From: Lactobacillales bacterium
Lineage (GTDB): Bacteria; Bacillota_I; Bacilli_A; RF39; UBA660
NCBI GenBank assembly: GCA_015059545.1
Contig: SVAG01000001.1
Coordinates: forward strand, 167,381-231,380
DNA length: 64,000 bases
Direction: 5' to 3'
Shown here: positions 17,172-48,772 of the stretch, one piece after another
Numbering within the stretch: the first letter of the stretch is position 1
How the letters are laid out: the number at the start of each line of letters is the position of its first letter
Position numbers and translations under genes: made by a program
Notes under the pieces: model-generated
The model's database searches: none
Told to the model about the DNA's origin: nothing
The model's input: only the letters and a program-made list of their open reading frames with translations

Positions 17172-17180
17172 TGTTATAAT
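17172..17180 (+). promoter_or_regulatory. Extended -10 element TGTTATAAT upstream of giant protein 1
   Basis: Exact TGnTATAAT about 40 nt upstream of the ATG at 17222. The -35 is poor (TTTAAA). Confidence 0.4.
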
Positions 17181-17221
17181 AATTATTGATGGTAAACTAT
17201 AGTATAGGAAAGATGATGTGT

Positions 17222-20200
17222 ATGAAAAATTTAAAAAAATATTTAACAATATCATTAATATTTGTAATATTTTTAATTAATATAAATGAAGTATCTGCAG
17301 CAGCCGCAACTTATAGTGCAAATGCTGGGACTGCTTACAATGGTGGTGCAGTGTCTAATAGTTGTGCAGGTAAGACAAACTGTGCAGTTAGTAGTGATAG
17401 CGAAATGATAATTCAAGCTAAAATGTATTATGTAAATAATGGTTCTTTTGATGTGGTGGGAGCAACAGCTTACTTTGTAGATAGTGATGCATATAATATT
17501 TTAAAAGATAAAGGATTAAATTTAATATATGTGCCTATGTTCAATCAATATAGATCACATGAACAGGCTGCTGAATACTTAAAATCATATTTTGGATCAG
17601 GAGCAAGAACAACAACTGATGGAATAAATTTTTTAAAAACTATAACTGGTTTACAAGATTATTCGGAAATGGTTAGTAATCAAAGTCAAGGTGTAGGTGG
17701 AACAAAAGGATATAGAGTAGTTATAGAACCAGCATATAGATATGCTAATCCAACATTTGGTACAAATTATACATATGCATTAATGACTCCTAAAGGGTTA
17801 GCTGCTGAAAAATATGTAGATGGTGTTAATACTACATGTTTAGGAGAAGTTAATAAACAATCTATATGCATTAGACCGGTTTTAGGTTTAAATTCTCAAT
17901 CTCAATATTTACGTGTTAAATCAAATGATGTAGGAATAGAAGCAGCAAGTGTTGATTATTGTTCTAGACAAGCTGCAATCTCAGATATTGCTAATAAACA
18001 AATTGGTTGCGGATATGATATGATTGATATGAGTAAATATGTGATTGTAAAAAAATGTTATTCACAAAAAGTAAATATTAGCAATAAAAATTTTAGTTGT
18101 AAAAATTATGATGAAAATAATGTTATAAAGTTTACTGAAGAATATAAAAATGATTGTAATTCTACAAGTCCTACAGGCTTTAACGAATCAGGAAAATATA
18201 TAGCAGAAAGTGGAACTTGTAAAATTTATTGTAAAGAATCAGCACAGGTTAGTTTACCTGGAAATATTTCAGGATCAATACAAAGAGGATCTTACTTTGC
18301 GTGGCCTACAAGACCGGACGATGCTAGTGGATTGTATAGTATGAATATGAAATCTACATTAGTTTGTACAATAAAAGATACTGCAGCTCTAGCACAAACA
18401 GTAGGTACAGAATTAATTATGGGATGTCAAGAAAATTTTACACCTTATAATAGAGATACTTGCCGTTCTATAACAGATAAAACAGAGAAAATATGCCCAT
18501 TCGGAACGGAAGAAAGAAATGGAAAATGTTATAAATTAGCAAATGCTACTAAAATAACAGATGCATTAACTACTGAACAAGTTAGTAAAGTATGTCCATC
18601 TGATGGAACATATGAATTAATAGATAATAAATGCTATCATCAAGTTAACCCTACATCAAAAGATGAGGCTTCAACTAGTAAAGTATGTCCAGATGGATAT
18701 AAAACTAATTCAGGTGGAACTGGTGATAAAGCTTGTAAAAAAACGGTTGACAATTGGGTATGTCCACAATACTATAGTACTAATCCTGGAGGGTCAGGTG
18801 ATTACGCCTGTAGATTAAAAAAATATAAATACTATGGTGCAGAGTATGGAAGTGTTGATGGTGGGAAAAGTAGTATTTGTGAATCTGTATATGGAGGATG
18901 GTTTGTAAATGGTAAATATTGCAATCCTTACTCTGATCCTTGTTGTAAAATACCAGATGGATATTGGTATAAACCAAAAGTTAATAGTCCAACTACTAAA
19001 TATGCAGCAAAAAAATGCTTAGGTGGAGAAGATTCAAAAGGAAATTGTAAGCCATATTGTGCAAAAGGAACTGCTGTAAAAGTTGATAAAAAATATAGAT
19101 GTATTGTATGTCCAAGTGGGTATAAAGTATCTAGTGTTGCTGGTAAATGTGTTAAAAAGAAAAATACTGCAAAAGTGTGCCCATCAGGATCAAGTTTAAA
19201 TTCTTCAGATAATAAATGCTATAAAATTGTTCCACCATATTGTACAAAAGGTACATTAATGGATGTTAATTTCAAATATAAATGTTTAACATGTCCAAGT
19301 GGATATAGTGTGTCTTATATAAATAAAGGTAGATGTGTTCAAAATTCAGAAACAGCTAAAGTATGCCCATCAGGATATGTAGAAGTAAAATCTACAGGAG
19401 AATGTTATTTAGCAGCTAAGAAAAACAAACCTAAATTTAGTTGTCCATCAGGGTATACTATGAATTCAGATCAAGAAACATGTAACAAAGTATGTAACAA
19501 AGAAGATTTAGTAAATAAATCAAGCTCAGTAATTATTAGTGATGAAACTAATCCTATCAGTGCTTCATTAGTTGCTGGTTCAAATATAGAACTAAAAAAA
19601 ATAGAAGAGCCTGTAAAAACATTTAAAGAAACAAAAGATAATGTTGATATTTATACATTTGAAAGAGTTGCTCATTTTAAAATTGAAGAAAACACAAATA
19701 GATATTATGATAGATTAACAGGCGCTGTATCTAATCAAGGAGAATCGAGTGAAAGAATTTTTGATAGAGGAGAAGGAGTTATATCAGTTTCTAAAACCGC
19801 AAAAACATATGATGATAATGGAAACATATTTAAATATAAACTTCAAATAAAAGATATTAATATAGGTAGTGGGGGTAGATTTGGTAAATTAATAACAAAC
19901 TATTCATGCGAATATATAGTAACTGAAGATGACGATGATTGTGTTTGTCCGAATGGAACAAAAAATGCTGGAATGTCATTAAATGAACTTACTGCAAAGT
20001 ATTGTAATAATGTTAATAAGACTTGTTCAGAATGGCAATACTTATTATGTGATTCACCATATTCAAAAATACTTGAAATCGAAGGATGTACAGATAAATT
20101 ATATTGCAATAATACACAAACAAATGCAAAAATTAATATAACAGATTGTGTAAAAAAAGAAGCTGATACTAAAACTTTAGATAAAGCAATTAATACATGT

Positions 20201-21049
20201 CAAACAAATCAAACAGAATGTACAAATAATTGGTGTTATAATCAAAAAAATAATAAACCTGTACCTATAGCAGATTGTCTAAGTGAAGGAAATTCAAGAG
20301 AAACATGTTATAGAAAAATGGGATGTACTACAGATATTTGTGAAGATGGAAAATGCTGTACAGGTACATGTAAATGGTCATATGGAAAAACAAAGGATAA
20401 TACTGTAACATATGGATATCAAACATGTAACAATAATAGATATTGTGGATTTATAGCATATTGTACAAATGATAGCAGAAAAACATCTATTCATACAAAT
20501 CAATGTATTCAAAGTAAATTAAAAACAACAAGTATCACTGGATATTTAAATACTGAAAGGAATTTTGAAAAATTAAAAGAATCAGTAGAAGCATGTAAAT
20601 CAACAATTTGTGCATCAAGTGAAAAAATTGTTTATAGAGTTGTAGATTTAACAAATCCTTTCCCTGGAAAAGATGGAATTAAAAATGCTTTAACTATAGT
20701 GAATGCTAATAGAGAACCTGGATACAACTGGAATTCAGAAACAGCTATAAAAGAACAAATTTTAAATGGTAGAGGAGCATCAGGATACGAATTATATAAT
20801 AAAGAACCTCTTATAACAATCAAACTTACACCAAGCGATATAAAAGCAATAAAAAAATATAATGAAACAACACCATATAATAATTTTGATATGAATTGTA
20901 TAAGTGGTGATAGTGCATCAGGATGTATAAGTAATTTTTTACATAAAAATGAACTTAATTTAGATATAGATGGGGTTGCAAATTGTACAAATTTAAATGC
21001 ATCTTCTTCTATAGAACAATTTAACAATTGTTATAACAAAGAGAATTAA
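17222..21049 (+). CDS. Giant secreted Cys-rich protein, paralog 1 (about 1275 aa), with a central CPxGY Cys-repeat cassette
   Basis: Sec signal peptide MKNLKKYLTISLIFVIFLININEVSA (ATG at 17222, 9 nt after AGGAAAG; the ORF track starts at a TTG at 17186). It shares long conserved N- and C-terminal blocks with the ORFs at 21781 and 26300. No LPXTG motif or C-terminal TM seen. Confidence 0.8.
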   Translation: MKNLKKYLTISLIFVIFLININEVSAAAATYSANAGTAYNGGAVSNSCAGKTNCAVSSDSEMIIQAKMYYVNNGSFDVVGATAYFVDSDAYNILKDKGLNLIYVPMFNQYRSHEQAAEYLKSYFGSGARTTTDGINFLKTITGLQDYSEMVSNQSQGVGGTKGYRVVIEPAYRYANPTFGTNYTYALMTPKGLAAEKYVDGVNTTCLGEVNKQSICIRPVLGLNSQSQYLRVKSNDVGIEAASVDYCSRQAAISDIANKQIGCGYDMIDMSKYVIVKKCYSQKVNISNKNFSCKNYDENNVIKFTEEYKNDCNSTSPTGFNESGKYIAESGTCKIYCKESAQVSLPGNISGSIQRGSYFAWPTRPDDASGLYSMNMKSTLVCTIKDTAALAQTVGTELIMGCQENFTPYNRDTCRSITDKTEKICPFGTEERNGKCYKLANATKITDALTTEQVSKVCPSDGTYELIDNKCYHQVNPTSKDEASTSKVCPDGYKTNSGGTGDKACKKTVDNWVCPQYYSTNPGGSGDYACRLKKYKYYGAEYGSVDGGKSSICESVYGGWFVNGKYCNPYSDPCCKIPDGYWYKPKVNSPTTKYAAKKCLGGEDSKGNCKPYCAKGTAVKVDKKYRCIVCPSGYKVSSVAGKCVKKKNTAKVCPSGSSLNSSDNKCYKIVPPYCTKGTLMDVNFKYKCLTCPSGYSVSYINKGRCVQNSETAKVCPSGYVEVKSTGECYLAAKKNKPKFSCPSGYTMNSDQETCNKVCNKEDLVNKSSSVIISDETNPISASLVAGSNIELKKIEEPVKTFKETKDNVDIYTFERVAHFKIEENTNRYYDRLTGAVSNQGESSERIFDRGEGVISVSKTAKTYDDNGNIFKYKLQIKDINIGSGGRFGKLITNYSCEYIVTEDDDDCVCPNGTKNAGMSLNELTAKYCNNVNKTCSEWQYLLCDSPYSKILEIEGCTDKLYCNNTQTNAKINITDCVKKEADTKTLDKAINTCQTNQTECTNNWCYNQKNNKPVPIADCLSEGNSRETCYRKMGCTTDICEDGKCCTGTCKWSYGKTKDNTVTYGYQTCNNNRYCGFIAYCTNDSRKTSIHTNQCIQSKLKTTSITGYLNTERNFEKLKESVEACKSTICASSEKIVYRVVDLTNPFPGKDGIKNALTIVNANREPGYNWNSETAIKEQILNGRGASGYELYNKEPLITIKLTPSDIKAIKKYNETTPYNNFDMNCISGDSASGCISNFLHKNELNLDIDGVANCTNLNASSSIEQFNNCYNKEN

Positions 21050-21107: not shown

Positions 21108-21133
21108 CTATAATGAATGATAAGGGTGATTAT

Positions 21134-21766
21134 ATGAAAAAAATATTTTTTGGAGTAGTTAGTTTCTTTATTATGATGATTAATGCTAATGCAGCATGTG
21201 ATGATGAAGAAATGATTAGATTATCAAAACTTGCTAATAATGTAGCAAGTAATTACTATTTTGATCCAGAAACACAAAAATTTGAAATAACATTTACAAA
21301 TGTTACAAAAGAAATTGTTATAACAGATTTAATTAATGGGCAAATGTATAATGAAGATATTGAATTTACAATAAAAAATTTAGAATCAGGTAATTATAGA
21401 TTTAATATTACATCAACTGATGTTAGTTGTACAGGTGAAACATTAGTTACAAAATATATAAATTTACCTTATTATAATAAATTTTATACATCTGAAGAAT
21501 GTAAGGGTATAGAAAATTATTCGTATTGCAAAAAATGGGTAAAAAATGAAATATCAGAAAGTATTTTTCAAAAAAAAGTAACTCAATATAAAGAAAATTT
21601 AAATAAAGAAATAAAACAAGAAGTAATAGAAGAAACAGTTTTGGATAAAATAAAAAAAGTAATTCTTGATATATATGTAAATTATTATTATATAATTTTA
21701 CCTTTATTCATAACTATTTTATGTATAATAATTTATATAAAAGATAAGAGTGATGATATCTTATAA
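21134..21766 (+). CDS. Small signal-peptide plus C-terminal-TM protein, partner family copy 1 (210 aa)
   Basis: The ATG at 21134 follows AAGGGTGA. Signal peptide ...INANA, then CDDEEMIRLSKLANN, CKGIENYSYCKKW and a C-terminal TM (YYYIILPLFITILCIIIYI). It is a paralog of the ORF at 25651. Confidence 0.7.
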   Translation: MKKIFFGVVSFFIMMINANAACDDEEMIRLSKLANNVASNYYFDPETQKFEITFTNVTKEIVITDLINGQMYNEDIEFTIKNLESGNYRFNITSTDVSCTGETLVTKYINLPYYNKFYTSEECKGIENYSYCKKWVKNEISESIFQKKVTQYKENLNKEIKQEVIEETVLDKIKKVILDIYVNYYYIILPLFITILCIIIYIKDKSDDIL

Positions 21767-21780: not shown

Positions 21781-24700
21781 ATGAATAAAAGAAAAAACAT
21801 GTTTATAACATTATTGATTATGTTTTTTTCTTTTGTTTGTGTAAATAAAGTGACTGCTTTATATAATGGTAGTGGTGGAACAGGGTATGATGGTGGTTCA
21901 AGAGGTGACTGTGGAAGTATAGTAAACTGTTCATACAACAACTCTAATATGTTAATAATGCAAGCGAGATTATATTACATTAATAATGGTTCGTTTTCTC
22001 ATATTGGGAAAACATATTATTTTGTAAATAAAAATGCTTCGGATTTTTTAGCTGGCAAAGGACTCAATTTAATTTATATAAGTGCTTTTGATGGATATGG
22101 AAAAAATTATCAAAAAGCTAGTAAATATTTAAAAGAAACATATTTTGGAAATACAGCAACTAACCCAAAAAAAGATACAGCAATAACTTTTTTAAATAAT
22201 GTTACAAGTTCAGATAATTATCTGAAGGTTTTAACTAAAAAAAGTGAATTTGCAAATAAAACGACAGCAGCAAAAAAAGGATATAGAATTATCATAGAAC
22301 CTGCTAATAATTATGCTAATCCTTCATTCAGTAATAATACACATGCTTTAATTACAGTAAAAGGTATGGCAGGTGAAGTAAAAGGTGGAGCCCACATATC
22401 ATGTTTAGGTACACCTGGAGCAACTACTACTGTGTGTGGTAATCCTTTATTAGGTAATGGATCACAAGCTCAGTTATTATTCACAAATTTTAAAGATGTA
22501 GGAATTTCAGCTGCATCAAAAGAAATATGTGAAAAAATTACAATAAATGGACTAGCTGATATAAAAAAAGGTTGTGGATATAATATTGTTGATATTAGCC
22601 AATATGTTGATGAACCAGAATGCTATGTTAGCAGTTTAAATGGAGCATTAACCTGTGATAATACAGATGAAAACAATGTTACAGATTTTACTGAAACTTA
22701 TACAAAATTAGAAAAGTGCCCAGCTGATATATCAGAAGACGAACAACAACAAATTAGTAAAGATGGAAAAATAATAGGTACAACTATTGGAACTTGTACT
22801 ATGTATTGTAAAGAATCAGCGATTGCTAGTTTTCCTGGAAATGTAGGTAACTTAATTCAAAGAGGATCTTATTTTGCATGGCCAACAAGACCAGATGATA
22901 CAAAAGGATTATATAGTATGAGCATGCAATCAACATTTACTTGTAAAATACAAGATGAAGGAGCTGCAGATACAGTAGCTGCTACATATACAAGAAAATG
23001 TATTGGAAATACTACAGAATTTGATGAAGATAATTGTAGATCAAAAACAGAAACTAAAACTAGATTGTGTCCAAAAGATTACTATTTAAGCGGAACTACA
23101 TGTTATAGTAATGCAACATATTGTGCTAATGGTGTAAAAGAAAACGGGAAGTGTAAAATAACGACATATTATTGTGCATCAGGATACACACTTTCAGGAA
23201 AAAAGTGTTATACATATGCTTGTCCAAGTGATTCACAAATTTATAGTGGCTCAGGTTCAAATATGCTGTGTACTAAAACTGAAAAAGTGTGTCCATCTGG
23301 ATGGAATCCATATGGAACATCAGGAACAGAATGTGCTAAAAATGCAACTCCTATATATAGCTATAAATGTTCGGAAGGTTCGTTAAATGAATCATCTTGT
23401 TTAAAAAATGCAACAACAACTAGATTTTGTCCGTCTGGGACACAAAATGGTGAATGGTGTTATAGAAGCAAAGCACCTAATGCAAGTTGTCCTCAGGGGT
23501 GGACAAAAGTTACAGAATATAAATGTAAAAAATATACTAGTTCAAAATACACTTGTCCATCAGGTTGGACACCATATGGAACATCAGGATCACAATGTAA
23601 AAAAAATGCTACGAAATATATTAGTTCTTACTCTTGTAAAGAAGGGGACTTAAAAAGTTCGATGTGTGTAACAAAAAAAGAAAATAAAACAACGATATTT
23701 AAAGCTACAAAAGTAGAGGTTAATGCATATACAAAAGTGACATATGAAAATCCATATAGTAAGACAACTGCTTCTACTTGCCCAGAAGGCACTGGTGATT
23801 CAGGAGGAAAATGTTATATCTTATCAGAAAAAGTGACAACTGATTATAGATGCCCAAAAGGATACACTTTAAATGGAAAAACTTGTGTTAATAATTGCGA
23901 TAAAACAAAATTAATAAATAATGTAAAAGAAATATTAAAAAATAATAAATATGAAGCTCATCTAACAGCGGGTACAAATAATCCACTTACAAATATTAAA
24001 TTACAAATTGCAAAAATAGAAGAAAATTATGATGATAATAAACTTGTTTTCACCAAGAAAGTATATTTTAAAATCCCATCAGATGCTACTAGTGGTAAAA
24101 ATAGATATTATAATAAAATAACAGGAATTGTTTCTGATTCATCTTCTTTAAGTAATACAATTTTTGATAGAGGAGAAGGAGTAGTATCAACAAGTTTAAG
24201 AGATAAAATTCTTGTTGGTAATAATATAAAAAAATATGAGCTAAAAATCACAGGAGTTAAATTAGGTACAAATAATCAATTTGGAGAAAAAATAACAAAT
24301 TATACATGTAATTATAGTGTCACTGATAATGGTGATGATTGTGTATGTCCGGATGGAACAACGAATGCAGGTGTATCAATTAAATATTTAAAGAAACAAT
24401 TATGTGAAAGTGAACAAGGAACAGAAAACAAAACATGTGTTGATTGGCAAAATGATCTTTGTAATTATGATGGTACAAACGGAAATGAAATAGAAGAATG
24501 TACAGTAACTAATAAATTTTATTGCATAGATTCTAAAAATAGTAAAAAAGATAATCCTATAAAAATAGATATAACTAGTTGTGTAAGATCATTAATGGCA
24601 AGTACAGGTTCCAATTTAGAAGAATCTATAACAAAATGTACAAATGCTCAATCAAAATGTACAAATGAATATTGTATTAATTCAAAAACAGGAGAACAAA

Positions 24701-25613: not shown

Positions 25614-25650
25614 TAATAATGAGAATAGGAGACTAAAGGAGGCTGGCGTG

Positions 25651-26292: not shown

Positions 26293-26299
26293 AGGTGAA

Positions 26300-33773: not shown

Positions 33774-33980
33774 ATGAAAGAAGCAGCAGGAGAAGCAAAT
33801 ATGACAGTAATTACAATAGTTTTAATAGCAATCGTTTTAGGTGTTGGGACTATTATTGTTAATAATTTAATGGATAGCGTAAAAAATAATAGTGAATCGA
33901 TGAACCATGGATGTGCAAGCGATGAATATTGGACAGGATCTGCTTGTGCTAAAAGAACTGGAACAACATCAGGAACATAA
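33774..33980 (+). CDS. flp: Flp-like small pilin (68 aa)
   Basis: Leader MKEAAG, then the hydrophobic helix EANMTVITIVLIAIVLGVGTIIV and a short C-terminal domain with 2 Cys. RBS GGGTGGTGA. The size and position fit a Tad major pilin, but it lacks the canonical G/xxxxEY motif. Confidence 0.6.
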   Translation: MKEAAGEANMTVITIVLIAIVLGVGTIIVNNLMDSVKNNSESMNHGCASDEYWTGSACAKRTGTTSGT

Positions 33981-36438: not shown

Positions 36439-36482
36439 ATGTTATAATGTATGTGGTATATTTTAAATAAATGAGGTGCACT

Positions 36483-39975: not shown

Positions 39976-40302
39976 ATGAATAATAATTTTTTAATACCGG
40001 CCAATTCAAAAAAATCACAATTATATTTTGGATTGTTCAATAAATTTGATTTAATTTTATTTGGTAGTGGAGTAGGTTTTTCATTATTAATGATGGCAAT
40101 TATACCACCAGGAAATTATATTATTTCTATATTAATATGTTTACCTGCTGTAGTAACTGGGTTTCTAGTATTCCCAGTTCCTAACTATCATAATGTATTA
40201 ACTTTATTAATATCGGTATGGAATTTCTTTACAACAAGACAAAGATTCATTTGGAAAGGTTGGTGTGTGAAAGATGAGTTCAAAGAAGACGATAAAAAGT
40301 AA
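39976..40302 (+). CDS. PrgI/VirB3-like small membrane protein (108 aa)
   Basis: IPANSKKSQLYFGLFNKFDLILFGSGVGFSLLMM followed by a second TM segment. It lies immediately upstream of VirB4. Confidence 0.55.
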   Translation: MNNNFLIPANSKKSQLYFGLFNKFDLILFGSGVGFSLLMMAIIPPGNYIISILICLPAVVTGFLVFPVPNYHNVLTLLISVWNFFTTRQRFIWKGWCVKDEFKEDDKK

Positions 40303-40825
40303 ATATACTGAACAATATGTTCCAATAAAAAGTATTACTAATGGAATGATAACTCTTGAAAATAATGAAAAATTAACAGGATTAAAGATAATGCCAAGAA
40401 ATATATTTATATCTGATGCAAACACTCAATTCGCTGTAATTGATAACTTAAAAAATGTTTATAATGTTATTGATTATGAATTTTGGGTAATAGCAGCAGA
40501 TAGACCTGTAGATATAAATGTATTCTTATCACAATTACAATTGTTATATGCTAAAACAAATGATCAAGTAACAAGAAAATTGATAATGGAAGATATAGAA
40601 AAAGCAAATACTTTTACAAATAATAATGTTGTTGATACAGAATATTTCTTACTATTTAGACATAAAGATACAGAAGTTATTAATAAAAGATTAAGACAAT
40701 TAATAACAATGTTTGCTAATGCTGGATTAAATTCGCACCAAGTAACAAACGATGATTTAAGAGTTATATTAGATAATTTCTTAAATGGTGGACAAACTGT
40801 TAACTTTGGGGGTGTATTTGCATGA
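40274..40825 (+). CDS. Free-standing homolog of the N-terminal domain of Tn916-ORF16/CD1110-type VirB4 (183 aa)
   Basis: The pattern YTEQYVPIKSITNGMITLENNEKLTGLKIMPRNIF...DYEFWVIAADRPVDIN resembles the N-terminal region of Gram-positive VirB4 proteins. Its stop overlaps the next start (ATGA at 40822-40825). Confidence 0.5.
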   Translation: MSSKKTIKSKYTEQYVPIKSITNGMITLENNEKLTGLKIMPRNIFISDANTQFAVIDNLKNVYNVIDYEFWVIAADRPVDINVFLSQLQLLYAKTNDQVTRKLIMEDIEKANTFTNNNVVDTEYFLLFRHKDTEVINKRLRQLITMFANAGLNSHQVTNDDLRVILDNFLNGGQTVNFGGVFA

Positions 40826-42632: not shown

Positions 42633-45053
42633 TTGGATAATAAAGATTACGAAGAGTTAGAAGAAGAATTAGAACAACAATCAGATGAAGAAAATATAGA
42701 TGATGAAGAATCAGAAGAATACGATGATTCTGAAGAAACATTTGATTATGATGAGTCTGATGAAGAAAGTTTTTATGATGATTCTGAAGAAGATTCGTAT
42801 AATGAATCACAATATGATTTTAATAATCAAAATGTAAAGAATAAATTACGTGACCTAAGAAATCAAAATAAGCAAAACCAAAATACAGCCAATAGATTAA
42901 ATCAAAGAAAAGCAAATACGATGAGTAAAGGAGTTGAAGCACCAAAATCAACTCCTTCACCTTCAAATGCTATTCAAAATGGACAATCAACAAACCTTTT
43001 AAATAAAGGCATTAATTCAGCAAAAAGTGCAGGTAAAGGCCTTGGTCAAAAAGCTGGACAAGCAATTGCATCAGCAGGAAAAGCAGCAGGAACTGCAATA
43101 GCTCAAGGGGTAAAATCTTTAGTTGCGGCTTTAGTTGCAAATCCATATTTTTGGGTTATTGTTGGGGTTATTGTATTATTGATTTTAATTCCAATATTAT
43201 GGAAAGCATATGAAGGTGATGATGGATCAGGAAAAGATTTAAGTGGTGGATATTTTGATGAAACTTGTGATTTTAACTTAACAAAAGTTAATTTAACACT
43301 TGATGATGGAAAAAGCGTTGATACTGGAATAAGTTTTGAAGATTATATTATAGGAGTAGCATATGCCGAAATAGGTGAATATATTTATCTAGAAGGTTAT
43401 GAAGAATATGCAAAAGTTGCTATGATAACAGCGAAAACATATACATTAGCAACAGCTGGATATAATAATACAAATAAAGAAATAACTTTAAAAGCATCAA
43501 CATATGCACATGCATGGTGTGATATATATGAAGGTTGTATGTGGTATAATCGCGGTAGCGGGACTTATTGGTATTATTCAGCAAAACATAAACTTGATAT
43601 AAGTGGAGCAAGTCTTTATAAATCAGCACTTAATGAAACAAATTTACAAAAAGCAAAGACGACATATTCTGAAATAGCAAATTATTTATATGCACCTACT
43701 TCTTTGAAAGGCCCATTAACTAGTAGTTCTCAATTAACAGCAACACAATATAGAGATCACGCACAAAACTTTTGGAAAAAACTTGCTTCAGAAGGTAAAA
43801 CATTTAAAGAAATTTTATCAGCAACAGGAACAGATGCATATCCACAATATGTTAGTTCGGCTAGACCTGGTAAGACAAGTGATTATAATACGGCAGTTAT
43901 GATAAGAGATATTTATAAAAATTTAACATTATATAATTTATCTTCGTATTGTGATTATACAGCTGTAGAAGGAAGCTGTAATACAAGTACACCTATAAAG
44001 ATTGCAGCAGGAGAAAAATTTATTATAACATCTCCATTTGGAATGAGAAATCACCCATTAGGTGGTGGACAAAGAATGCATAATGGGATCGATTTAGGGT
44101 ATGCAAGTGGGACACCTATTTATAGTATCGCTGATGGTACTGTAGTAGCTGCTGGATATGGAGCAAGTGCAGGAAACTATGTTAATATTGGACATGATAT
44201 AGATGGAGACGGAACATACGACTATACGACATATAATTATCATATGGTAGAACCAACCCCATTATCAGTTGGAGATGATGTTGTTGGTGGACAACAAGTA
44301 GGAAAAGTTGGAACAACTGGAGGTAGTACAGGACCACACTTACATTTTGGTATTTCAGATAAAAATGGTAATTATATAGATCCTGAACCTATAATTGAAG
44401 CAATAAGAAACAAAACATCAGTATTTGATAGTGCTTCCGTATGTAAAAGTGCAGGAGGAGCGATTGGGGATTATCCATATTACAATCAATGTGATGGAGT
44501 ATGGTCATCTAAAGTAATATGCGATACTGCGGATTATAGTAACGGAGTATGTTATGCAAATAATACAATTTGTACTTCTGGATGTGGATATACATCATTC
44601 TCTATGATTGCTTCAGGATTAAATGGAGATGGGGGGATTAAACCAGATAATGTTGTTTCAATATTATCAAAATATTCATATAATCCAGGAGGCGGAGCAA
44701 TAACAGATGCTGCATTAATAGATAAAAAAGCACTTAATCATTATAATATGCAAGCAGAAGTATTATTTCCAAGAGGTTCTTCACTTAGTTTAAAAGAAAA
44801 AAAATCAAAAATAGTTGCGGCTTTAAAATCTGGAAGACCTGTTGAATTATTAGTTCCGGGACATTTCGTAGCTTTAGTTGGAATAAATGGTGATAAAGTA
44901 AAACTTAATGATCCTGGTAAAAGAAGTAATGTAGGTGAATATACAATAGATGAATTAAATAGCTTATTTGGTTCTCAAAGAAGTTGTAGTGATTGCTTTG
45001 TTTACGCAATTGCATATTCTAGAACAAGTGGTGGTAATAATGAAAAAGCATAG
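42633..45053 (+). CDS. PrgK/CwlT-like three-domain cell-wall hydrolase: acidic cytoplasmic tail, TM, SpoIID-like domain, M23 peptidase, C39-like/CHAP-like Cys peptidase domain (806 aa)
   Basis: D/E-rich N-terminus and the TM NPYFWVIVGVIVLLILIPILW. SpoIID-like FEDYIIGVAYAEIG...AKVAMITAKTYTLA. M23 motifs HNGIDLG...GTGGSTGPHLHFGI. The C-terminal YPYYNQCDGVWS...TSGCGYTSFSMIASGL resembles C39-like peptidases. Confidence 0.8.
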   Translation: MDNKDYEELEEELEQQSDEENIDDEESEEYDDSEETFDYDESDEESFYDDSEEDSYNESQYDFNNQNVKNKLRDLRNQNKQNQNTANRLNQRKANTMSKGVEAPKSTPSPSNAIQNGQSTNLLNKGINSAKSAGKGLGQKAGQAIASAGKAAGTAIAQGVKSLVAALVANPYFWVIVGVIVLLILIPILWKAYEGDDGSGKDLSGGYFDETCDFNLTKVNLTLDDGKSVDTGISFEDYIIGVAYAEIGEYIYLEGYEEYAKVAMITAKTYTLATAGYNNTNKEITLKASTYAHAWCDIYEGCMWYNRGSGTYWYYSAKHKLDISGASLYKSALNETNLQKAKTTYSEIANYLYAPTSLKGPLTSSSQLTATQYRDHAQNFWKKLASEGKTFKEILSATGTDAYPQYVSSARPGKTSDYNTAVMIRDIYKNLTLYNLSSYCDYTAVEGSCNTSTPIKIAAGEKFIITSPFGMRNHPLGGGQRMHNGIDLGYASGTPIYSIADGTVVAAGYGASAGNYVNIGHDIDGDGTYDYTTYNYHMVEPTPLSVGDDVVGGQQVGKVGTTGGSTGPHLHFGISDKNGNYIDPEPIIEAIRNKTSVFDSASVCKSAGGAIGDYPYYNQCDGVWSSKVICDTADYSNGVCYANNTICTSGCGYTSFSMIASGLNGDGGIKPDNVVSILSKYSYNPGGGAITDAALIDKKALNHYNMQAEVLFPRGSSLSLKEKKSKIVAALKSGRPVELLVPGHFVALVGINGDKVKLNDPGKRSNVGEYTIDELNSLFGSQRSCSDCFVYAIAYSRTSGGNNEKA

Positions 45054-45747
45054 ATTATTAGCATTAATTATATCTTGTTTATTATTAACAGGGTGTACAG
45101 TTGATTATAACGTTGAAATAAAAAATGATAATACTGTCAATGAAAATATCATGTTAAATGGTCAAAAAGTTAATAGTAATAAAGAGTTCCAAAAAATAAA
45201 AAAAGAAATAAAAAATCAAATTTCTAATACATTAAATAAATATGAATATCAATACAATATAAAAAATGAAAACAATAGTGTAGTAGTAGAAATAAATAAA
45301 AATAGTAATTTTGAAATTTTATTAAGTAATTCTTTATATAATGAATTTTTTGAAGATTATGAATTATTTGTTAATAAAGGAATAAAAACTTTCAAAAATA
45401 CAGGTACAAATTATTTAGCAGAACTCTTTGTTACTAAAAATTATGAACAAGATTTAAAAGTAGAAAAAGAAGTAGATGTATTAAATGTAAATATAAAATT
45501 TGAAAATATAGTAACTGAGCACAATGCTGATAAGTATGATGAAAAAACTAATACATATACTTGGATATTTACAGAAAATGATATTCAAAAAACAATAAAT
45601 TTTTCTTATGATACTGATCAATTATTTGAAAAAGAAAAAAAATTTAGTTTCGATAATATAGGAATAATAATAGGTATAATTTTACTAATTATTGTTATAT
45701 TTATAACATCATTTATATTTATATATAGAAAAAAAGATGAATTATAG
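45040..45747 (+). CDS. T4SS-associated lipoprotein with a C-terminal TM anchor, copy A (235 aa)
   Basis: The ATG at 45040 overlaps the hydrolase 3' end. Lipobox LLTGC followed by TVDYNVEI, a NADKYDEKTNTYTWIFTEND motif, and a C-terminal TM. Confidence 0.65.
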   Translation: MKKHRLLALIISCLLLTGCTVDYNVEIKNDNTVNENIMLNGQKVNSNKEFQKIKKEIKNQISNTLNKYEYQYNIKNENNSVVVEINKNSNFEILLSNSLYNEFFEDYELFVNKGIKTFKNTGTNYLAELFVTKNYEQDLKVEKEVDVLNVNIKFENIVTEHNADKYDEKTNTYTWIFTENDIQKTINFSYDTDQLFEKEKKFSFDNIGIIIGIILLIIVIFITSFIFIYRKKDEL

Positions 45748-45759
45748 GGCGTGATATTA

Positions 45760-46476
45760 ATGTTGAAAAAAAGAGTATTATTTTTGATTATATTATGTTT
45801 ATTACTAACAGGGTGTACAGTTGATTATAATATTATTGTAACTTCTGATAAAAAGATTATAGAAGATGTGACTGTAAGTAAACTAATTTCAAAAATAAAA
45901 GAAGAAGGTTATAATGCAGAAGAAATAAAAAATGCACAAGAAACTTCATATAAAGAATTTTTAAGAAAAAATAATATAGATTATGAATTTGTTATTACTT
46001 CAGATGAACTTCAAGGTATTTTTTCTAGAAAAAGTTCTAATTTTGAATCAATTGAAAATCTTCCCTATTTTCAACAATTATATAATAGTATAAGTATAGA
46101 AAAAGATAAAAAAACATATTCATTTAAAACTGATGGAATATATAATGGTAAGCAGATGTTTGATATTACAGATTTCACTGAGGTTCCTATGTTATCTGAA
46201 TTAAGAGTCAATATACAATTTCATAATGTAGTTATCGATTCTAACGCAGATAAATATGATAGTGCAACTAATACATATACATGGATATTTAATCGTGAAA
46301 CAGAAAATAAAACTATTGAATTTAACTTATCAAATAAAAAAAGATATGATATAATATCAAAATATATATTTGATACCTACAAATATAGAATTATAATAAC
46401 TATAATTTTATTAGTAATAATAACATTATTAGTAACAATTTATTTTACTAAATTAAAGAAGAATAATACATTTTAG
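45760..46476 (+). CDS. T4SS-associated lipoprotein with a C-terminal TM anchor, copy B (238 aa)
   Basis: Lipobox LLTGC followed by TVDYNIIV, a NADKYDSATNTYTWIFNRET motif, and a C-terminal TM. It is a paralog of copy A. The ORF track starts at a GTG at 45751. Confidence 0.65.
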   Translation: MLKKRVLFLIILCLLLTGCTVDYNIIVTSDKKIIEDVTVSKLISKIKEEGYNAEEIKNAQETSYKEFLRKNNIDYEFVITSDELQGIFSRKSSNFESIENLPYFQQLYNSISIEKDKKTYSFKTDGIYNGKQMFDITDFTEVPMLSELRVNIQFHNVVIDSNADKYDSATNTYTWIFNRETENKTIEFNLSNKKRYDIISKYIFDTYKYRIIITIILLVIITLLVTIYFTKLKKNNTF

Positions 46477-46487
46477 GAGTGATTCTT

Positions 46488-48704
46488 ATGAAATTAAAAT
46501 TTAGAGCAGATGCTAAAGATATAATAATATTTGTAATATTTATAATATTTTGTTTTTATATCATATCTATAGGAGTGTTAAATGCATTTTCAATACTTGA
46601 AGATGGTACAATACATGGTATGAATCCTTTTCCTATTTTTACATCTGATAAACTTATTATAGCTTTAATACTTTTTACAGCAGTTTTAATATTTGCAGTA
46701 GCAAGTGTTTCATCTTACTTTTTTGAAAGAGAAAAAGGTGTAGGAGTAGCTGTAGGTAAAAAAGATGAAAAAGGATATTCTAGATGGTGTAAAGATAAAG
46801 AAATGAAAAAATCAACTGGTATAACTGTCATTAAACCAACTGATGATAATATCGAAAAAGGTGGTATACCAATTTATAATAATGGTAAAGAAATATGGCT
46901 AGATACTGGTGGATATCACAATATGATTATAGGATCTACAGGTAGTGGTAAATCAGCAGGTTTTTCATTTCCATATATATATGCTATGGCAAAAGCTGGA
47001 GAATCAATGATTGTAACCGATCCAAAAGGTGAATTATATGTTGGTACAGCAAAAGAATTAGAAAAAAGAGGATATAATATAATATTACTTAACTTCCGTG
47101 ATCCAGAAAAAGGTAATTGTTGGAATCCATTTTCAATACCTTATAAATTATATCAACAAGGTAATAAAGATAAAGCAATAGAGTTGCTAGAAGACTTAGC
47201 TAAAAATATCCTTTATGATGAAAATAATAAAGGAAATGATCCTTTCTGGGAAAATACATCAGCGGATTACTTTGCAGGTCTTGCATTTGCATTATTCCAA
47301 GATGCTAAAGAAGAAGAAGTAAATATAAATAGTATTAACTATATGGCAACCGTAGGAGAAAATAAATTAGGTGGAACAAATTACATTAAAGAATATTTTA
47401 GTGGTAAACCAACAACTTCTACAGAAAGTATAAAAGTTAATGCAACTATAACAGCCCCAAATGATACAAAAGGAAGTATCTTATCTGTATTTAATCAAAA
47501 AATACAATTATTCTCATCACGTGAAACATTATCTGAAATGTTAGCTCACAATGATTTTGATATGGAAGATATTGGTAGAAAGAAAACAGCCGTATTTATA
47601 GTAATACAAGATGAAAAGAAAACATATCACTCATTAGTTACAATATTCTTAAAACAATGTTATGAAACTCTTGTTAGAGTTGCTCAAGAAAATCCAGGTG
47701 GAAAATTAAAATATAGAACAAACTTCTTACTAGATGAATTTGCAAACATGCCACCTTTAAGTGATGTTGATGCAATGGTATCAGCAGCTCGTTCAAGAAA
47801 TATTAAATTATCATTTATTATCCAAAACTTTTCACAATTAAATGATGTTTATGGTAAAGAAAAAGCTGAAACTATAAGAGGTAACTGTGGTAATACAATA
47901 TATATTTTAAGTACAGAACTTGCTGCACTTGAAGAAATAAGTAAAATGTGTGGAGAAGAAAAATCTAAAAAAGATGATAAGACTGATTCTAGACCACTTA
48001 TAACAGTAACTGATTTACAAAATTTTAAAGAAGAAGAAGCTCTTATTTTAAGATCTAGAATGCGTCCATTTAAAACTAAATTAAAATATCATTTTAAAAT
48101 GGATTGGGGAATGGATAAACAAGAAGCTGAATATCCAATAAGAAAACAACAACCAGTTCAAATATTTGATTTAAAATCTTTTGTTGAAAAACAAAGAGAA
48201 CAAAAAATTAATGATATGTTAAATGGAAATTCTAGTGATAAAAAGATGTCATCTCCAATGGGAATGCCAGGTGGATTTCCGCCACCAGGATTATTTGGTC
48301 CAAAAGAGAATAAGAAACCATCAGGTGGATTCAATGTTGATGATTTAGTAGCAAGAATAGATGCTAAAATAGCAGAATTAGAAGAAGAAGAAAGAAAAGA
48401 AAAAGAAGCTCAAGAAAAGAAAAAGAATGAACTTAAAAATAAAAAAGCTCCTGAACCAATTAAAGAAAATATTGAATCTAAGAAAGAGCAAGAAGAAATA
48501 AAAGAAGAAAAATTAGAGGAAAAACCGGTAATTGAAAAAGTTATTGAACAACCAAAAGAAATAATAGAAGAAGAAATAGAATTTATTGATAATAAAGAAG
48601 AAATTCCAAATCAAGTAGAAGAAAAAGTAATAGAAGAAGAAATAGATGATGAAATTACTGATGACCAATTCTTTGATGATTTCTTCTATGATGAAGATGA
48701 ATAG
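46488..48704 (+). CDS. virD4: VirD4/TraG-family type IV coupling protein with a K/E-rich and acidic C-terminal tail (738 aa)
   Basis: The ATG at 46488 follows AGGAGTGA. Two N-terminal TM segments, Walker A GSTGSGKSAG, Walker B FLLDEFANMPP, and a roughly 150-aa low-complexity tail ending DDQFFDDFFYDEDE. Confidence 0.85.
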   Translation: MKLKFRADAKDIIIFVIFIIFCFYIISIGVLNAFSILEDGTIHGMNPFPIFTSDKLIIALILFTAVLIFAVASVSSYFFEREKGVGVAVGKKDEKGYSRWCKDKEMKKSTGITVIKPTDDNIEKGGIPIYNNGKEIWLDTGGYHNMIIGSTGSGKSAGFSFPYIYAMAKAGESMIVTDPKGELYVGTAKELEKRGYNIILLNFRDPEKGNCWNPFSIPYKLYQQGNKDKAIELLEDLAKNILYDENNKGNDPFWENTSADYFAGLAFALFQDAKEEEVNINSINYMATVGENKLGGTNYIKEYFSGKPTTSTESIKVNATITAPNDTKGSILSVFNQKIQLFSSRETLSEMLAHNDFDMEDIGRKKTAVFIVIQDEKKTYHSLVTIFLKQCYETLVRVAQENPGGKLKYRTNFLLDEFANMPPLSDVDAMVSAARSRNIKLSFIIQNFSQLNDVYGKEKAETIRGNCGNTIYILSTELAALEEISKMCGEEKSKKDDKTDSRPLITVTDLQNFKEEEALILRSRMRPFKTKLKYHFKMDWGMDKQEAEYPIRKQQPVQIFDLKSFVEKQREQKINDMLNGNSSDKKMSSPMGMPGGFPPPGLFGPKENKKPSGGFNVDDLVARIDAKIAELEEEERKEKEAQEKKKNELKNKKAPEPIKENIESKKEQEEIKEEKLEEKPVIEKVIEQPKEIIEEEIEFIDNKEEIPNQVEEKVIEEEIDDEITDDQFFDDFFYDEDE

Positions 48705-48747
48705 TTTTGTGTATTTTAATACTTTTGAAATTATGTAAAAGAATAAG

Positions 48748-48772
48748 CAACAGATATTTATCTGTTGTTTTT
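48748..48772 (+). terminator. Intrinsic terminator closing the T4SS operon
   Basis: CAACAGAT (48748-48755) pairs with ATCTGTTG (48760-48767), followed by TTTTT. Confidence 0.6.

Follow-up and report, generated by a model that had tools for sequence, protein, structure and literature searches.

The conjugation operons of pLS20- and pXO2-type Firmicutes plasmids carry an ATPase that the literature names 'VirB11', and the genes next to it have been left unnamed (PMC8557374, PMC1196294). In Clostridia, the DUF5411 domain has been reported alongside CpaF and PilC-like genes (PMC9523054). Patescibacteria carry a chromosomal T4SS that has no relaxase and has a VirB2-like pilin array (PMC12102498, PMC12857230).

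The 64,000-nucleotide stretch of DNA that we analysed (the window) holds 24 consecutive forward (+) strand ORFs, listed from 17186 to 48704, with junctions of -86 to +138 nt. A first-pass annotation of the sequence had described such a co-directional run with mostly short or overlapping junctions, and it was right. The block has three parts: adhesin-like surface proteins, a Tad-like pilus module and a T4SS. The nearest plasmid homologues are on Bacillus thuringiensis pBMB67 (a conjugative plasmid of the pXO2/pAW63 type), plasmids of the pLS20 family and a Mycoplasmatota plasmid. We consider it probable that the block derives from a Firmicutes pLS20/pXO2-type conjugation (mating-pair-formation) operon, has become fixed in the chromosome and is inherited vertically.

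Surface proteins and the upstream boundary

The block was first placed from 17172. Its start is probably 13257 or 14460 instead, because homologues of a 400-aa and a 525-aa ORF accompany the system in relatives. The first of these (u400, 13257–14459) is a membrane-anchored exoprotein with an N-terminal transmembrane segment and a probable member of the system; in related loci L019, L053, L056 and L082 its homologue immediately precedes the T4SS pilin genes. The second (u525, 15554–17131) spans the membrane with four segments and has a domain outside. It travels with the giant-protein genes described below: in L092 and L093, homologues of 52–71% identity lie immediately before the partner and giant genes. 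Neither protein has a family match in Pfam or NCBIfam. Between them, a NAGPA (phosphodiester glycosidase) domain protein (14460–15482; Pfam NAGPA 1e-34) is a conserved neighbour of uncertain membership, found in the same position in L093 at 92% identity. At the other end a terminator-like hairpin (48745–48770), recognised by pattern scan alone, would close the block. The extent is then about 13.3/17.2 to 48.8 kb.

Three giant Cys-rich proteins with signal peptides follow: giant 1 (17186–21049; 1287 aa, 73 Cys), giant 2 (21781–25509; 1242 aa, 69 Cys) and giant 3 (26300–29266; 988 aa, 45 Cys). They are paralogues of 37–43% identity (43% for giants 1 and 2) with a Cys content of 4.6–5.7%. Interleaved with them are two small partners (21113–21766, 217 aa; 25648–26292, 214 aa), 41% identical to each other, each with a signal peptide and a C-terminal transmembrane anchor; the first is kept beside the giants in L092 and L093. 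The first-pass description of three secreted paralogues with two partners is thus accurate. Giant 1 has no Pfam or NCBIfam match. For giant 3, a word-based search returned 14 homologues only, and no PDB fold matches its AlphaFold2 model (pLDDT 72) at E < 0.1.

The Tad-like pilus module and the T4SS

After the giants comes a DUF5411 protein with a pilin-like N-terminus (29279–29680; PF17424, E = 6e-49), an assignment that corrects the earlier description of this ORF. Profile comparison links it weakly to the ORF that precedes CpaB on pBMB67 and, on a pLS20-type plasmid, to gene 36. The CpaB/RcpC-like protein (29745–30572; PF16976, 33.4 bits against a cutoff of 28.8; TIGR03177 below cutoff) aligns with the pBMB67 SAF protein (hhalign 99.7%). 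The CpaF/TadA/VirB11-family ATPase (30583–31983; T2SSE 90 bits) has GETGSGKT at residue 145 and an N/Q-rich tail. It matches three NCBIfam models (VirB11, TadA, TrbB), each below cutoff, and aligns with the pLS20-type 'VirB11' (hhalign 99.9%). Next come a TadB-like protein (31996–32901; five transmembrane segments, 61–89% identity in relatives) and a TadC-like protein (32901–33689; four segments). These had been called T2SS-F-like platform proteins. Neither has a T2SSF Pfam match, and what stands is the profile link to the first and second pBMB67 ORFs after CpaF (hhalign 88.6% and 95.5%, respectively).

Three small proteins come next. A 68-aa candidate Flp-like pilin (33774–33980), named by its N-terminal hydrophobic helix and size only, has no Flp_Fap match and no E5/Y6 motif. 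Two pseudopilin-like proteins (34004–34447, 147 aa; 34460–34924, 154 aa) are paralogues (26% identity) with no Pfam or NCBIfam family match. Of the Flp-like pilin and TadE-like pseudopilins first proposed, the pilin-like N-termini are there and the family matches are not; the assignments are putative and reflect N-terminal shape. No prepilin peptidase is present within the window. The last protein of the module (34934–35929; 331 aa) is modelled by AlphaFold2 (pLDDT 77) as a receiver-like and a ParA/MinD-like domain, and Foldseek matches the model to ParA 3ea0 (E = 2e-4), MinD and FlhG. The motif GxxxxGK[ST] is absent and Walker A is lost. The predicted architecture is that of TadZ, as had been suggested. 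The protein has 3808 homologue clusters; none among the matches listed carries a functional name.

The T4SS begins with a VirB2-like pilin (36030–36395; 121 aa, two transmembrane segments; PF18895 22 bits, below cutoff) that weakly matches the pilin-like Mbov_0395 family of Mycoplasma ICEs. A 367-aa protein (36471–37574) follows, in which an exposed domain is fused to a VirB2-like C-terminus (PF18895 24.6 bits, residues 284–345). The earlier call of two VirB2-like proteins therefore holds through T4SS_pilin matches that are weak; 20 of 74 relatives of the pilin family match PF18895. An extended VirB6-like channel protein (37596–39950; TrbL_4, 32.4 bits against 27) ends in a coiled-coil tail and weakly matches the MMCAP2_0566 and Mbov_0396 families. 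The PrgI/VirB3-like gene (39976–40302; two transmembrane segments, weak TcpE match) occupies the position of the annotated PrgI-family gene in pBMB67. The ORF at 40274–40825, described otherwise at first, encodes the N-terminal VirB4 domain separately: it aligns with positions 96–276 of a Mycoplasma ICE VirB4 model and with the equivalent pBMB67 ORF (hhalign 97.4%). The VirB4 ATPase itself (40822–42609; AAA_10, P-loop_TraG) carries GTSGSGKS and scores 351 bits against the Mbov_0397 family (cutoff 590).

Downstream lie a cell-wall hydrolase with an M23/LytM domain and one transmembrane segment (42633–45053; Peptidase_M23 81.5 bits), whose position in relatives is taken by SpoIID-type or Amidase_5-type hydrolases, and two paralogous lipoproteins (45040–45747, with a C-terminal transmembrane anchor, and 45751–46476; 35% identity), both with the lipobox LLLTGC. 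A metagenome copy of the first lipoprotein is called at 235 aa; the mechanical ORF start in the window is 44968. The VirD4 coupling protein (46479–48704; T4SS-DNA_transf 196 bits, TraG-D_C, TrwB_AAD_bind) carries GSTGSGKS and belongs to the NCBIfam CD1115 family (317 bits against 250). The first-pass annotation had named the VirB6-like protein, VirB4, hydrolase, lipoproteins and VirD4 correctly, and its three ATPase motifs are all present. The T4SS is of the Gram-positive, Mycoplasma-ICE-like kind, its class probably MPF-FATA.

Mobility genes, linkage and inheritance

Pfam and NCBIfam searches of the main window ORFs found no relaxase, integrase, transposase or replication family in any ORF scanned, and domain searches of the flanking ORFs found core genes, both as first reported. 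The same holds beyond the window: roughly 10 kb on its upstream side and 7.5 kb on its downstream side contain housekeeping and spore-coat genes, with no relaxase, integrase or replication gene. The att-like repeats that the first-pass annotation proposed to look for do not exceed chance; no att repeat was found in about 160 related loci, and neither the window nor 54 of the loci examined contain a tRNA. A relaxase could be encoded at another site in the genome, or come from a family not yet recognised. Against the families covered, phmmer with MobP3 and pLS20-type queries found none in six-frame translations of the window and 160 loci; for the related loci the check comprised these two query families and a Pfam summary of the matches listed. 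We rejected identity as an ICE: the relaxase/oriT-processing, replication, integration and regulatory modules are all missing.

The approximately 160 related loci (eighty from species-representative genomes, eighty from metagenomes) share the window's gene order and come from uncultured low-GC gut Bacillota. The contigs of at least 21 loci in the species-genome set exceed 100 kb, the longest reaching 663 kb, and the block is chromosomal, as had been claimed. Many share the right junction rhodanese-VTT-RmuC, with the rhodanese found in 28/64 and 28/40 loci whose sequence extends that far. The clade is distinct: in a set of 1.84 billion representatives it forms a single full-length cluster (72% identity), and its next relatives are at 45%, 42%, then 34% or less.

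The two halves belong together, a linkage that the first-pass annotation had left to be checked. TadB and TadC are directly upstream in 58 of 77 related loci (those whose VirB4 shares 72% identity or more with that of the window), and 72 of 77 close loci have the TadZ-like gene next to the T4SS. VirB4 distances correlate with those of TadB (Mantel r = 0.75), the TadZ-like protein (0.84) and, as the one small flanking gene through which congruence with the species tree was tested, the rhodanese (0.77; p = 0.001 each). In a more distant sister sub-clade the T4SS stands alone at the same site, abutted by FemAB-type genes: TadB/TadC are adjacent in only 4/29 loci, and the Tad module is absent from the 9–10 kb upstream of VirB4 in 25/29. 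The Tad and T4SS modules can thus be separated. Across the whole uncultured lineage the locus is passed on vertically and maintained by selection.

Motor proteins are under strong purifying selection, and exposed parts diverge very fast. VirB4 is 68–96% identical across about 155 loci. Values of dN/dS, approximate because dS is partly saturated, are 0.04–0.2 for VirB4, its N-domain (0.04), the DUF5411 protein (0.05), TadB, the TadZ-like protein, CpaF and VirD4, and 0.4–0.87 for VirB6, the pilin-fusion protein (0.71) and giant 3. VirB4 has a mean pairwise distance of 0.18, RmuC of 0.31 and rhodanese of 0.44. Among relatives, identity is 30–57% for VirB6, the pilin-fusion protein and the giants, a range that giant 3 occupies where TadB is 80–94% identical. 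The VirB6-like protein is 38% identical to the L011 copy, though VirB4 there is 96% identical.

Proposed working and comparison with known systems

The locus is best read as a domesticated conjugation-type contact and transfer machine. It has no DNA-mobilising genes and is vertically inherited, and so looks like a conjugation machine that the cell kept for its own use. We propose that the giants would leave the cell through Sec and be retained by the membrane-anchored partners, forming with the variable pilin-fusion protein and VirB6 loops a lineage-specific contact surface. CpaF, TadB/C, CpaB and the TadZ-like protein could build a short Flp-like filament that crosses the wall and pulls a target cell close, where the hydrolase would open the peptidoglycan. 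VirB4, VirB6, the VirB3-like protein, pilins and lipoproteins would form the channel, to which VirD4 would supply substrate.

What that substrate is divides the possibilities. By analogy with Mycoplasma chromosomal transfer, the machine might exchange chromosomal DNA without a canonical relaxase, a reading to which we give tentative credence. We hold with equal reserve that protein or something else may pass to and from partner cells, as proposed for Patescibacteria. The remaining probability falls to adhesion only, or to another role.

The domesticated machine would descend from a recognisable source. The nearest plasmid relatives of its VirB4 and CpaF sit on plasmids with the same module order, and pBMB67, the pLS20-family plasmids and the Mycoplasmatota plasmid share the window's layout of adhesin, Tad-like (VirB11/CpaF) and T4SS parts. 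CpaB, CpaF, TadB, TadC and the VirB4 N-domain give 88–99.9% profile matches (hhalign) to pBMB67 or pLS20-type proteins, and the split VirB4 is common to the window, pBMB67 and the Mycoplasmatota plasmid. The first-pass interpretation was sound in seeing a chromosomal locus of linked halves without relaxase, integrase or att sites. It was mistaken that characterised Gram-positive conjugation systems have no Tad module and that the pairing is unprecedented: these plasmids carry a homologous CpaB/CpaF/TadB/TadC-like module beside a T4SS of the same kind. One class of Firmicutes conjugation operon thus ordinarily has this composite layout. The locus is unusual in its status, chromosomal and vertically kept, not in its gene combination, and its closest precedent is the T4SS of Patescibacteria.

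Composition of the block

The block consists of 24 consecutive + strand ORFs, from 17186 to 48704, with junctions of -86 to +138 nt; the window has a G+C content of ~25% and nearly all of its genes lie on the + strand. Family searches upheld most of the labels that the first-pass annotation had given to these ORFs (RcpC/CpaB, T2SSE, TrbL_4, VirB4, M23 and VirD4), and all the Walker A motifs that it quoted are present. It missed the identity of two ORFs: that at 29279, which encodes a DUF5411 protein, and that at 40274-40825, which encodes the VirB4 N-terminal domain separately. Of the families it proposed to search for, T2SSE, M23 and the VirB4/VirD4 families are matched and T2SSF, Flp_Fap and TadE are not.

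The three secreted, cysteine-rich giants (1287, 1242 and 988 aa; 4.6-5.7% Cys) have signal peptides and are 37-43% identical to one another. Each of their small partners (217 and 214 aa) has a signal peptide and a C-terminal anchor. Few homologues of the giants are detectable. Their model has a pLDDT of 72, with a poorly modelled but conserved C-terminal stretch of 160 residues, and their fold has no sequence match in the PDB and no Foldseek match to a solved fold.

On the Tad side, RcpC/CpaB (33.4 bits) and the T2SSE ATPase (90 bits) score above their Pfam cutoffs; this same CpaF-like ATPase (30583-31983) scores under the cutoffs of all NCBIfam equivalogs. It carries an N/Q-rich low-complexity tail of ~120 aa (residues ~345-466) whose length differs between relatives (proteins of 369-474 aa). 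The T2SSF Pfam model does not match the TadB/TadC-like proteins, which have the topology and position of platform proteins and profile matches only to unnamed plasmid neighbours of CpaF. Neither Flp_Fap nor TadE matches the block's pilin and pseudopilin candidates, whose N-termini lack E5/Y6, and the window contains no A24 (TadV-type) prepilin peptidase. The VirB2-like pilins of the T4SS module, by comparison, have two hydrophobic helices; there are 1-5 such ORFs per related locus (mean 2.7), with PF18895 found in 20/74 relatives and TrbC/VirB2 in one. The TadZ-like protein (331 aa, 34934-35929) is modelled (pLDDT 77) as a receiver-like domain and a ParA/MinD-like domain, in keeping with the TadZ architecture. 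Foldseek matches this model to ParA, MinD, FlhG and BcsQ (E = 2e-4 to 1e-2, TM ~0.35-0.5), the solved TadZ structure is not among the top matches, and the protein has no PDB sequence match and no Walker A motif. Its family comprises 3808 clusters, with no functional name among the matches listed.

On the T4SS side, two ORFs match T4SS_pilin weakly and the VirB6-like protein matches TrbL_4 above the cutoff. VirB4 has a Walker A motif and matches AAA_10, P-loop_TraG and CagE_TrbE_VirB; its best NCBIfam match is Mbov_0397, at 351 bits against an equivalog cutoff of 590. The best curated matches of the pilin, VirB6 and VirB4 are all Mycoplasma ICE families, and all fall below cutoff. VirD4 scores 317 bits against the CD1115 family of NCBIfam (cutoff 250) and 196 bits against T4SS-DNA_transf of Pfam, and the wall hydrolase of the module has a Peptidase_M23 domain. 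The VirB3/PrgI-like label of one ORF derives solely from a weak TcpE match and from position. No family match within the block points to a VirB8-like (PrgL/TcpC) scaffold, for which two lipoproteins with C-terminal anchors are candidates. The T4SS is of the Gram-positive pLS20/pXO2/Mycoplasma-ICE kind and probably belongs to the MPF-FATA class.

The two VirB4 ORFs of the window, N-domain (40274-40825) and ATPase (40822-42609), overlap by 4 nt. The same split recurs in pBMB67, the Mycoplasmatota plasmid and pLS20-type plasmids (L001, 19245-21824; L002, 19062-21764); the VirB4 model of Mycoplasma ICEs has the two domains fused. VirD4 (46479-48704) has a strongly acidic C-terminal tail (EEEIDDEITDDQFFDDFFYDEDE), and the hydrolase (42633-45053) has an acidic cytoplasmic N-terminal segment of ~160 aa; both could be docking sites. 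The type of wall hydrolase varies among relatives (M23, SpoIID-type or Amidase_5-type). Upstream of dacB, the window encodes a SpoIID-domain protein of 431 aa (8913-10208) and a 246-aa protein (10184-10924), the best window matches to the hydrolase and next ORF that sit just 3' of VirB4 in many relatives. The two could represent a T4SS hydrolase pair that was displaced or duplicated, and not a sporulation SpoIID. A link to the SpoIIIA-like sporulation channel was dropped: there was no SpoIIIA-type family match, and the neighbouring genes vary among related loci.

A pattern scan found one terminator-like hairpin, downstream of VirD4. Promoter counts did not exceed those in shuffles, the intergenic gaps holding single sites only, and no riboswitch or other RNA control element matched Rfam at the gathering score. 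The block probably starts at 13257 (the 400-aa ORF, 13257-14459) or 14460 (the NAGPA ORF, 14460-15482), because homologues of NAGPA, the 525-aa protein (15554-17131) and the 400-aa protein adjoin genes of the system in relatives. Two relatives' contigs that reach further left carry NAGPA, the 525-aa protein, partner and giant genes and then DUF5411, and a homologue of the 400-aa ORF adjoins pilin genes in four related loci.

Related loci, flanks and inheritance

A VirB6-anchored scan of species-representative genomes returned 80 loci, all from uncultured gut MAGs (rabbit, deer, mouse, human) labelled Bacilli, Tenericutes, Mycoplasmatota or Firmicutes. At least 21 of them lie on contigs of more than 100 kb, up to 663 kb, beside housekeeping genes. 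The order of their genes matches that of the window. Identity to the window's proteins is 68-96% for VirB4 (median 79), 61-86% for CpaF, 61-89% for TadB, 44-83% for the TadZ-like protein, 29-90% for VirD4, 26-41% for VirB6 and 27-56% for the giants. Where the sequence reaches far enough, VirB4 is present in 74/74 loci, VirD4 in 62/64 and CpaF with TadB and TadC in 46/55; insertions between the modules explain most of the loci without the last arrangement. A rhodanese gene lies 3' of VirD4 in 28 loci. Several JGI and ENA metagenomes contain identical copies of the window's locus, and the right junction of these copies is the same too. In two metagenome copies from the same species (L004, 4122-5108; L007, 10409-11125), the gene for the TadZ-like protein or the second lipoprotein is split into two ORFs, through either strain-level frameshifts or assembly errors.

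A second, VirB4-anchored sample of metagenome contigs comprised 80 loci from at least 488 matches, many from human gut. Their order is pilins, VirB6, VirB3-like, VirB4 N-domain, VirB4, hydrolase and VirD4, then rhodanese-VTT, and no relaxase match was found among them. A clade whose VirB4 is 45% identical was not located in the two scans; the second returned only the window's clade, and thus serves as an independent sample of it.

The first-pass annotation had asked whether the Tad and T4SS halves occur together in related genomes, and the answer differs between near and distant relatives. When VirB4 is at least 72% identical to that of the window (n=77), TadB and TadC lie within ~10 kb upstream in 58/77 loci and a TadZ-like gene is adjacent in 72/77. 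At 68-72% identity (n=29) the counts are 4/29 and 6/29, and in this distant sub-clade FemAB-type peptidoglycan genes adjoin the T4SS. What stays constant is the T4SS, as the core; the segment with the Tad genes and giants can be separated from it. Five loci of the T4SS-only sub-clade (L112, L113, L118, L123 and L103, at ~3.8-6.3 kb) have two tandem FemAB-type bridge-transferase genes just 5' of the pilin gene.

Family searches also agree with two statements of the earlier annotation, that the flanks are core genes and that mobility genes are absent. Upstream lie the end of ligA, pfl, bacA, dacB and spmAB; downstream lie rhodanese, VTT, rmuC, lon, ysxE-like, ffh and mazEF. Beyond the window, ~10 kb upstream and ~7.5 kb downstream hold housekeeping and spore-coat genes. 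Pfam and NCBIfam searches found no relaxase, integrase, transposase or replication family in any main window ORF, and no relaxase in the outside flanks. phmmer with two relaxase queries (MobP3 and pLS20-type Rel) found none in the 160 related loci, and Aux2 and primase queries gave no match either. Relatives' ORFs without a window counterpart include RecA, ScpAB, RNase Y, UvrC, S9, LDH and YfhO; in a Pfam summary of 93 unmatched ORF clusters, housekeeping families are among the best 25 of 87, and the families listed for these extra ORFs include one transposase and no relaxase. The block edges, where the earlier annotation had suggested looking for att sites, share no repeat above chance: the longest word common to the left (12.6-17.3 kb) and right (48.65-48.9 kb) edges is 11 nt, against a shuffle mean of 12.5. 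There are no tRNA genes in the window or in 54 related loci. The GC content of the block (~0.24-0.33) is only slightly higher than that of the flanks (0.20-0.26).

Outside the block, the window encodes a MazE/MazF (PemK) toxin-antitoxin pair downstream of ffh (59123-59841), a Pro-rich, extensin-like protein of 524 aa (790-2364) and two proteins without a family (54090-55367, 425 aa; 61242-63692, 816 aa). In one relative (L168, 17.6-21 kb), homologues of window bacA and of the ORFs at 7408, 7616 and 8290 (window 6.5-8.8 kb) directly follow RmuC, which points to a rearrangement of the chromosome around the locus between lineages.

Distances between VirB4 proteins correlate with those of TadB (Mantel r 0.75), TadC (0.71), the TadZ-like protein (0.84), VirD4 (0.61) and the flanking rhodanese (0.77), each with p = 0.001. 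VirB4 has diverged less than the genes beside it, with a mean pairwise distance of 0.18 as compared with 0.31 for RmuC and 0.44 for rhodanese. In a comparison with the closest species (L011), dN/dS is 0.04 for both VirB4 and its N-domain, 0.05 for DUF5411, 0.11 for TadB, 0.12 for the TadZ-like protein, 0.15 for VirD4 and 0.20 for CpaF, and it is 0.16 for the flanking VTT and 0.31 for the flanking rhodanese. It rises to 0.42 for giant 3, 0.67 for VirB6 (38% amino-acid identity), 0.68 for the 147-aa pseudopilin and 0.71 for the pilin-fusion protein (367 aa, 36471-37574). That the motors are frozen while the exposed parts are hypervariable offers a concrete handle on partner recognition. The VirB4 clade forms one full-length cluster (72% identity) among 1.84 billion 50%-identity representatives; its next relatives are 45% and 42% identical, then at most 34%, and PLSDB contains nothing closer than ~30%. 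A chromosomal system that is long resident and maintained by selection fits this pattern; a recent or decaying mobile element does not.

Function and alternative explanations

The data show the block's composition, homology, synteny and selection; its function we infer. Most plausibly, variable exported proteins and a short Tad-like filament would make the contact; the wall would then be opened, and a substrate selected by VirD4 would move through the VirB4/VirB6 channel. This could be relaxase-independent DNA exchange: the nearest relatives are all DNA-transfer systems, and Mycoplasma ICEs mediate chromosomal transfer too. It could equally be exchange with partner cells, as suggested by conservation at housekeeping grade, by the hypervariability of the exposed parts and by the precedent of Patescibacteria (PMC12102498, PMC12857230). 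We also put forward, as a tentative and rather unlikely proposal, that these uncultured, small-genome, low-GC gut Bacillota depend on contact with other cells and use the T4SS, conserved like a housekeeping system, to take up or exchange macromolecules, with the Tad-like pilus and the hypervariable Cys-rich surface proteins serving as docking gear specific to the partner. If true, the lineage would join Patescibacteria as a second case, arisen independently, of a 'T4SS for a living', which could be one of the reasons why it resists cultivation.

Could the block be two independent neighbours, a Tad-type adhesion pilus that displays the giants for gut colonisation and a separate T4SS? In the sister sub-clade the T4SS occupies the same rhodanese-VTT site by itself, preceded by FemAB-type genes, and some loci have insertions of unrelated genes between the modules. 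Other gut Firmicutes, too, have Tad-like clusters that lack a T4SS, order-wide in TANB77 (PMC11680825) and as DUF5411/CpaF in Roseburia and Ruminococcus (PMC9523054). However, homologous Tad-like modules sit inside the conjugation operons of three unrelated plasmid groups, the module divergences are correlated, and most close loci keep TadB/TadC (58/77) and the TadZ-like gene (72/77) adjacent. Moreover, in at least one locus whose sequence extends far enough upstream (L048), and probably in several more, the 10 kb upstream contain neither CpaF nor TadB/C, yet the pseudopilin and TadZ-like genes remain attached to the T4SS. We consider two separate systems unlikely.

It is very unlikely that the block is an ordinary ICE or integrated plasmid, still mobile, whose relaxase and recombinase are distant or escape recognition. 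Its right junction is constant across dozens of species, its divergence co-varies with that of the flanking rhodanese, its edges lack att repeats, tRNA genes and transposases, and its GC content is only slightly above that of the flanks. Mobility functions might be sought in the conserved family-less ORFs (the 400-aa, 525-aa and 331-aa proteins and the lipoproteins), but these are membrane or exported proteins, and the 331-aa protein models as a ParA-like fold. What speaks for a mobile element is that Mycoplasma ICEs, which provide the best NCBIfam match of VirB4, use a DDE transposase and have no identified relaxase (PMC6030558). A decaying, functionless remnant of an integrated conjugative element is scarcely credible: the window and the mapped relatives carry all ~24 genes intact, the motors have dN/dS values of 0.04-0.2, VirB4 is more conserved than the adjoining housekeeping genes, and the family of the 331-aa protein counts thousands of clusters. 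Decay would account for the missing relaxase and other mobility modules and for the split ORFs of two metagenome copies (the TadZ-like protein; a lipoprotein).

Comparison with known systems

The first-pass annotation knew of no characterised system that combines Tad and T4SS modules. Such systems exist: pBMB67, pLS20-family and Mycoplasmatota plasmids carry homologous modules. The closest plasmid VirB4 proteins (~29% identity) belong to B. thuringiensis pBMB67, which we take to have a pXO2/pAW63 backbone, with near-identical plasmids, and to a Mycoplasmatota plasmid. Both have SAF/CpaB, a ParA-like ATPase, CpaF, two polytopic proteins and small ORFs beside the T4SS. The Mycoplasmatota plasmid (L002, CP074574.1; 98 kb) combines T4SS and Tad-like module with a topoisomerase and a protein of 1650 aa; it is classed as non-mobilizable by MOB-suite, which recognised no relaxase in it, and so is another such T4SS without a known relaxase. 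The closest plasmid CpaF proteins are those of the pLS20 family and related Bacillus, Enterococcus and Paraclostridium plasmids, the best Bacillus matches being ~32% identical. As annotated, pLS20-family operons start with an adhesin (Tie/thioester), a small protein, a 'VirB11-like ATPase', two hypotheticals, DUF4320 and small ORFs, followed by VirD4, an extended VirB6, a small protein, a ~190-aa protein, VirB4, VirB8, VirB1, Aux1/2 and the relaxase.

We compared plasmid proteins by hhalign with profiles built from relatives of the window proteins. CpaB matched the pBMB67 SAF protein (probability 99.7%), CpaF the pLS20-type VirB11 (99.9%), and the VirB4 N-domain the equivalent pBMB67 ORF (97.4%). 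The first and second pBMB67 ORFs after CpaF matched the TadB-like (88.6%) and TadC-like (95.5%) proteins, and DUF5411 matched the pBMB67 ORF before CpaB (75%) and pLS20-type gene 36 (66%). In gene order, the likeness to the pLS20 family (for example pBatNRS213, OK210094) covers an adhesin, a one-TM small protein, a CpaF ATPase, two polytopic proteins and pilin-like ORFs, then VirD4, an extended VirB6, a VirB3-like protein, a separate VirB4 N-domain, VirB4 and a wall hydrolase. By contrast, pLS20 has a thioester adhesin (Tie) in place of the Cys-rich giants, VirD4 comes first, and it possesses a relaxase, Aux1/2, a primase, Rco/Rap-Phr control, surface exclusion and a replicon, all of which the block lacks. 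With pBMB67 the block shares DUF5411-like, SAF/CpaB, CpaF, TadB-like and TadC-like proteins, together with a T4SS in which VirB4 is split and a PrgI-family protein is encoded; unlike the block, pBMB67 is a plasmid with a MobP3 relaxase, ParM, IS elements and a ParA-type ATPase between CpaB and CpaF. Given the module order and profile matches that it shares with these plasmid operons, the window shows the usual arrangement found in one class of Firmicutes conjugation operons but lacks the genes for DNA processing, replication, integration and regulation.

On this sequence comparison, the 'VirB11 plus unknown genes' segment of pLS20/pXO2-type operons would be a Tad-like pilus module, which bears on whether Gram-positive conjugation uses a filament. 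The literature on these operons names only the ATPase ('VirB11') and lists its neighbours as unknown (PMC8557374, PMC1196294): in pAW63 the 'VirB11' gene is flanked by conserved hypothetical proteins (PMC1196294), and the pLS20 family paper states that the operons encode no pilus homologues (PMC8557374). An older survey recorded a B. anthracis operon with tad homology (PMC3244431). With the Tad/Flp pilus of Aggregatibacter and Caulobacter the block shares CpaB/RcpC and a CpaF-family ATPase, and it has candidates for the two platform proteins, the small pilin, the pseudopilins and the TadZ positioning protein; unlike that system, the window has no TadV peptidase and no Flp motif, and the T2SSF model misses the platforms. 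The TANB77 pilus cluster was rejected as a counterpart, having a different architecture and no T4SS.

The Mycoplasma ICE (CDS5 VirD4, CDS16, CDS17 VirB4) likewise has consecutive genes for pilin-like, VirB6-like and VirB4 proteins, but it is mobile, with a DDE transposase and inverted repeats, has a fused VirB4 and lacks a Tad module and wall hydrolase. Only VirD4 and VirB4 homologues are recognised in it by sequence, the relaxase of its model is assigned to no gene, and it mediates chromosomal transfer too (PMC6030558, PMC12857230). In the Ups pili and Ced DNA import of Sulfolobales, and in ComB of H. pylori, chromosomally encoded T4SS parts serve to exchange or take up DNA without a relaxase, and in Ups/Ced a type IV-like pilus is paired with them for cell contact (PMC11868833, PMC13395361); their likeness to the block is analogy only, with one weak CedD match (E = 1e-9). 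Closer in status is the T4SS of Patescibacteria, reduced-genome uncultured monoderms, which is described as chromosomal, lineage-wide, MPF-FATA-derived and mostly without a relaxase (PMC12102498; Wang et al. 2023, as summarised in PMC12857230). It shares with the block its chromosomal, lineage-wide, relaxase-less state, VirB2-like pilin paralogues and hosts that are uncultured monoderms with reduced genomes, but it belongs to a different phylum, and these accounts report no embedded Tad module or Cys-rich giants.

We found no description of this locus in the literature. Its architecture matches the known pLS20/pXO2-type conjugation machinery, and in status it is probably a domesticated chromosomal T4SS, likewise a known kind. 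According to a December 2025 review, nearly all known functions of Gram-positive T4SSs are mobile-element DNA transfer, the only named exceptions being the S. suis 89K island and Patescibacteria (PMC12857230). To these the locus would add a large gut lineage with a conjugation-type T4SS that is fixed in the chromosome, has lost its mobility genes and varies less than the housekeeping genes beside it; the 331-aa family alone numbers thousands of clusters.
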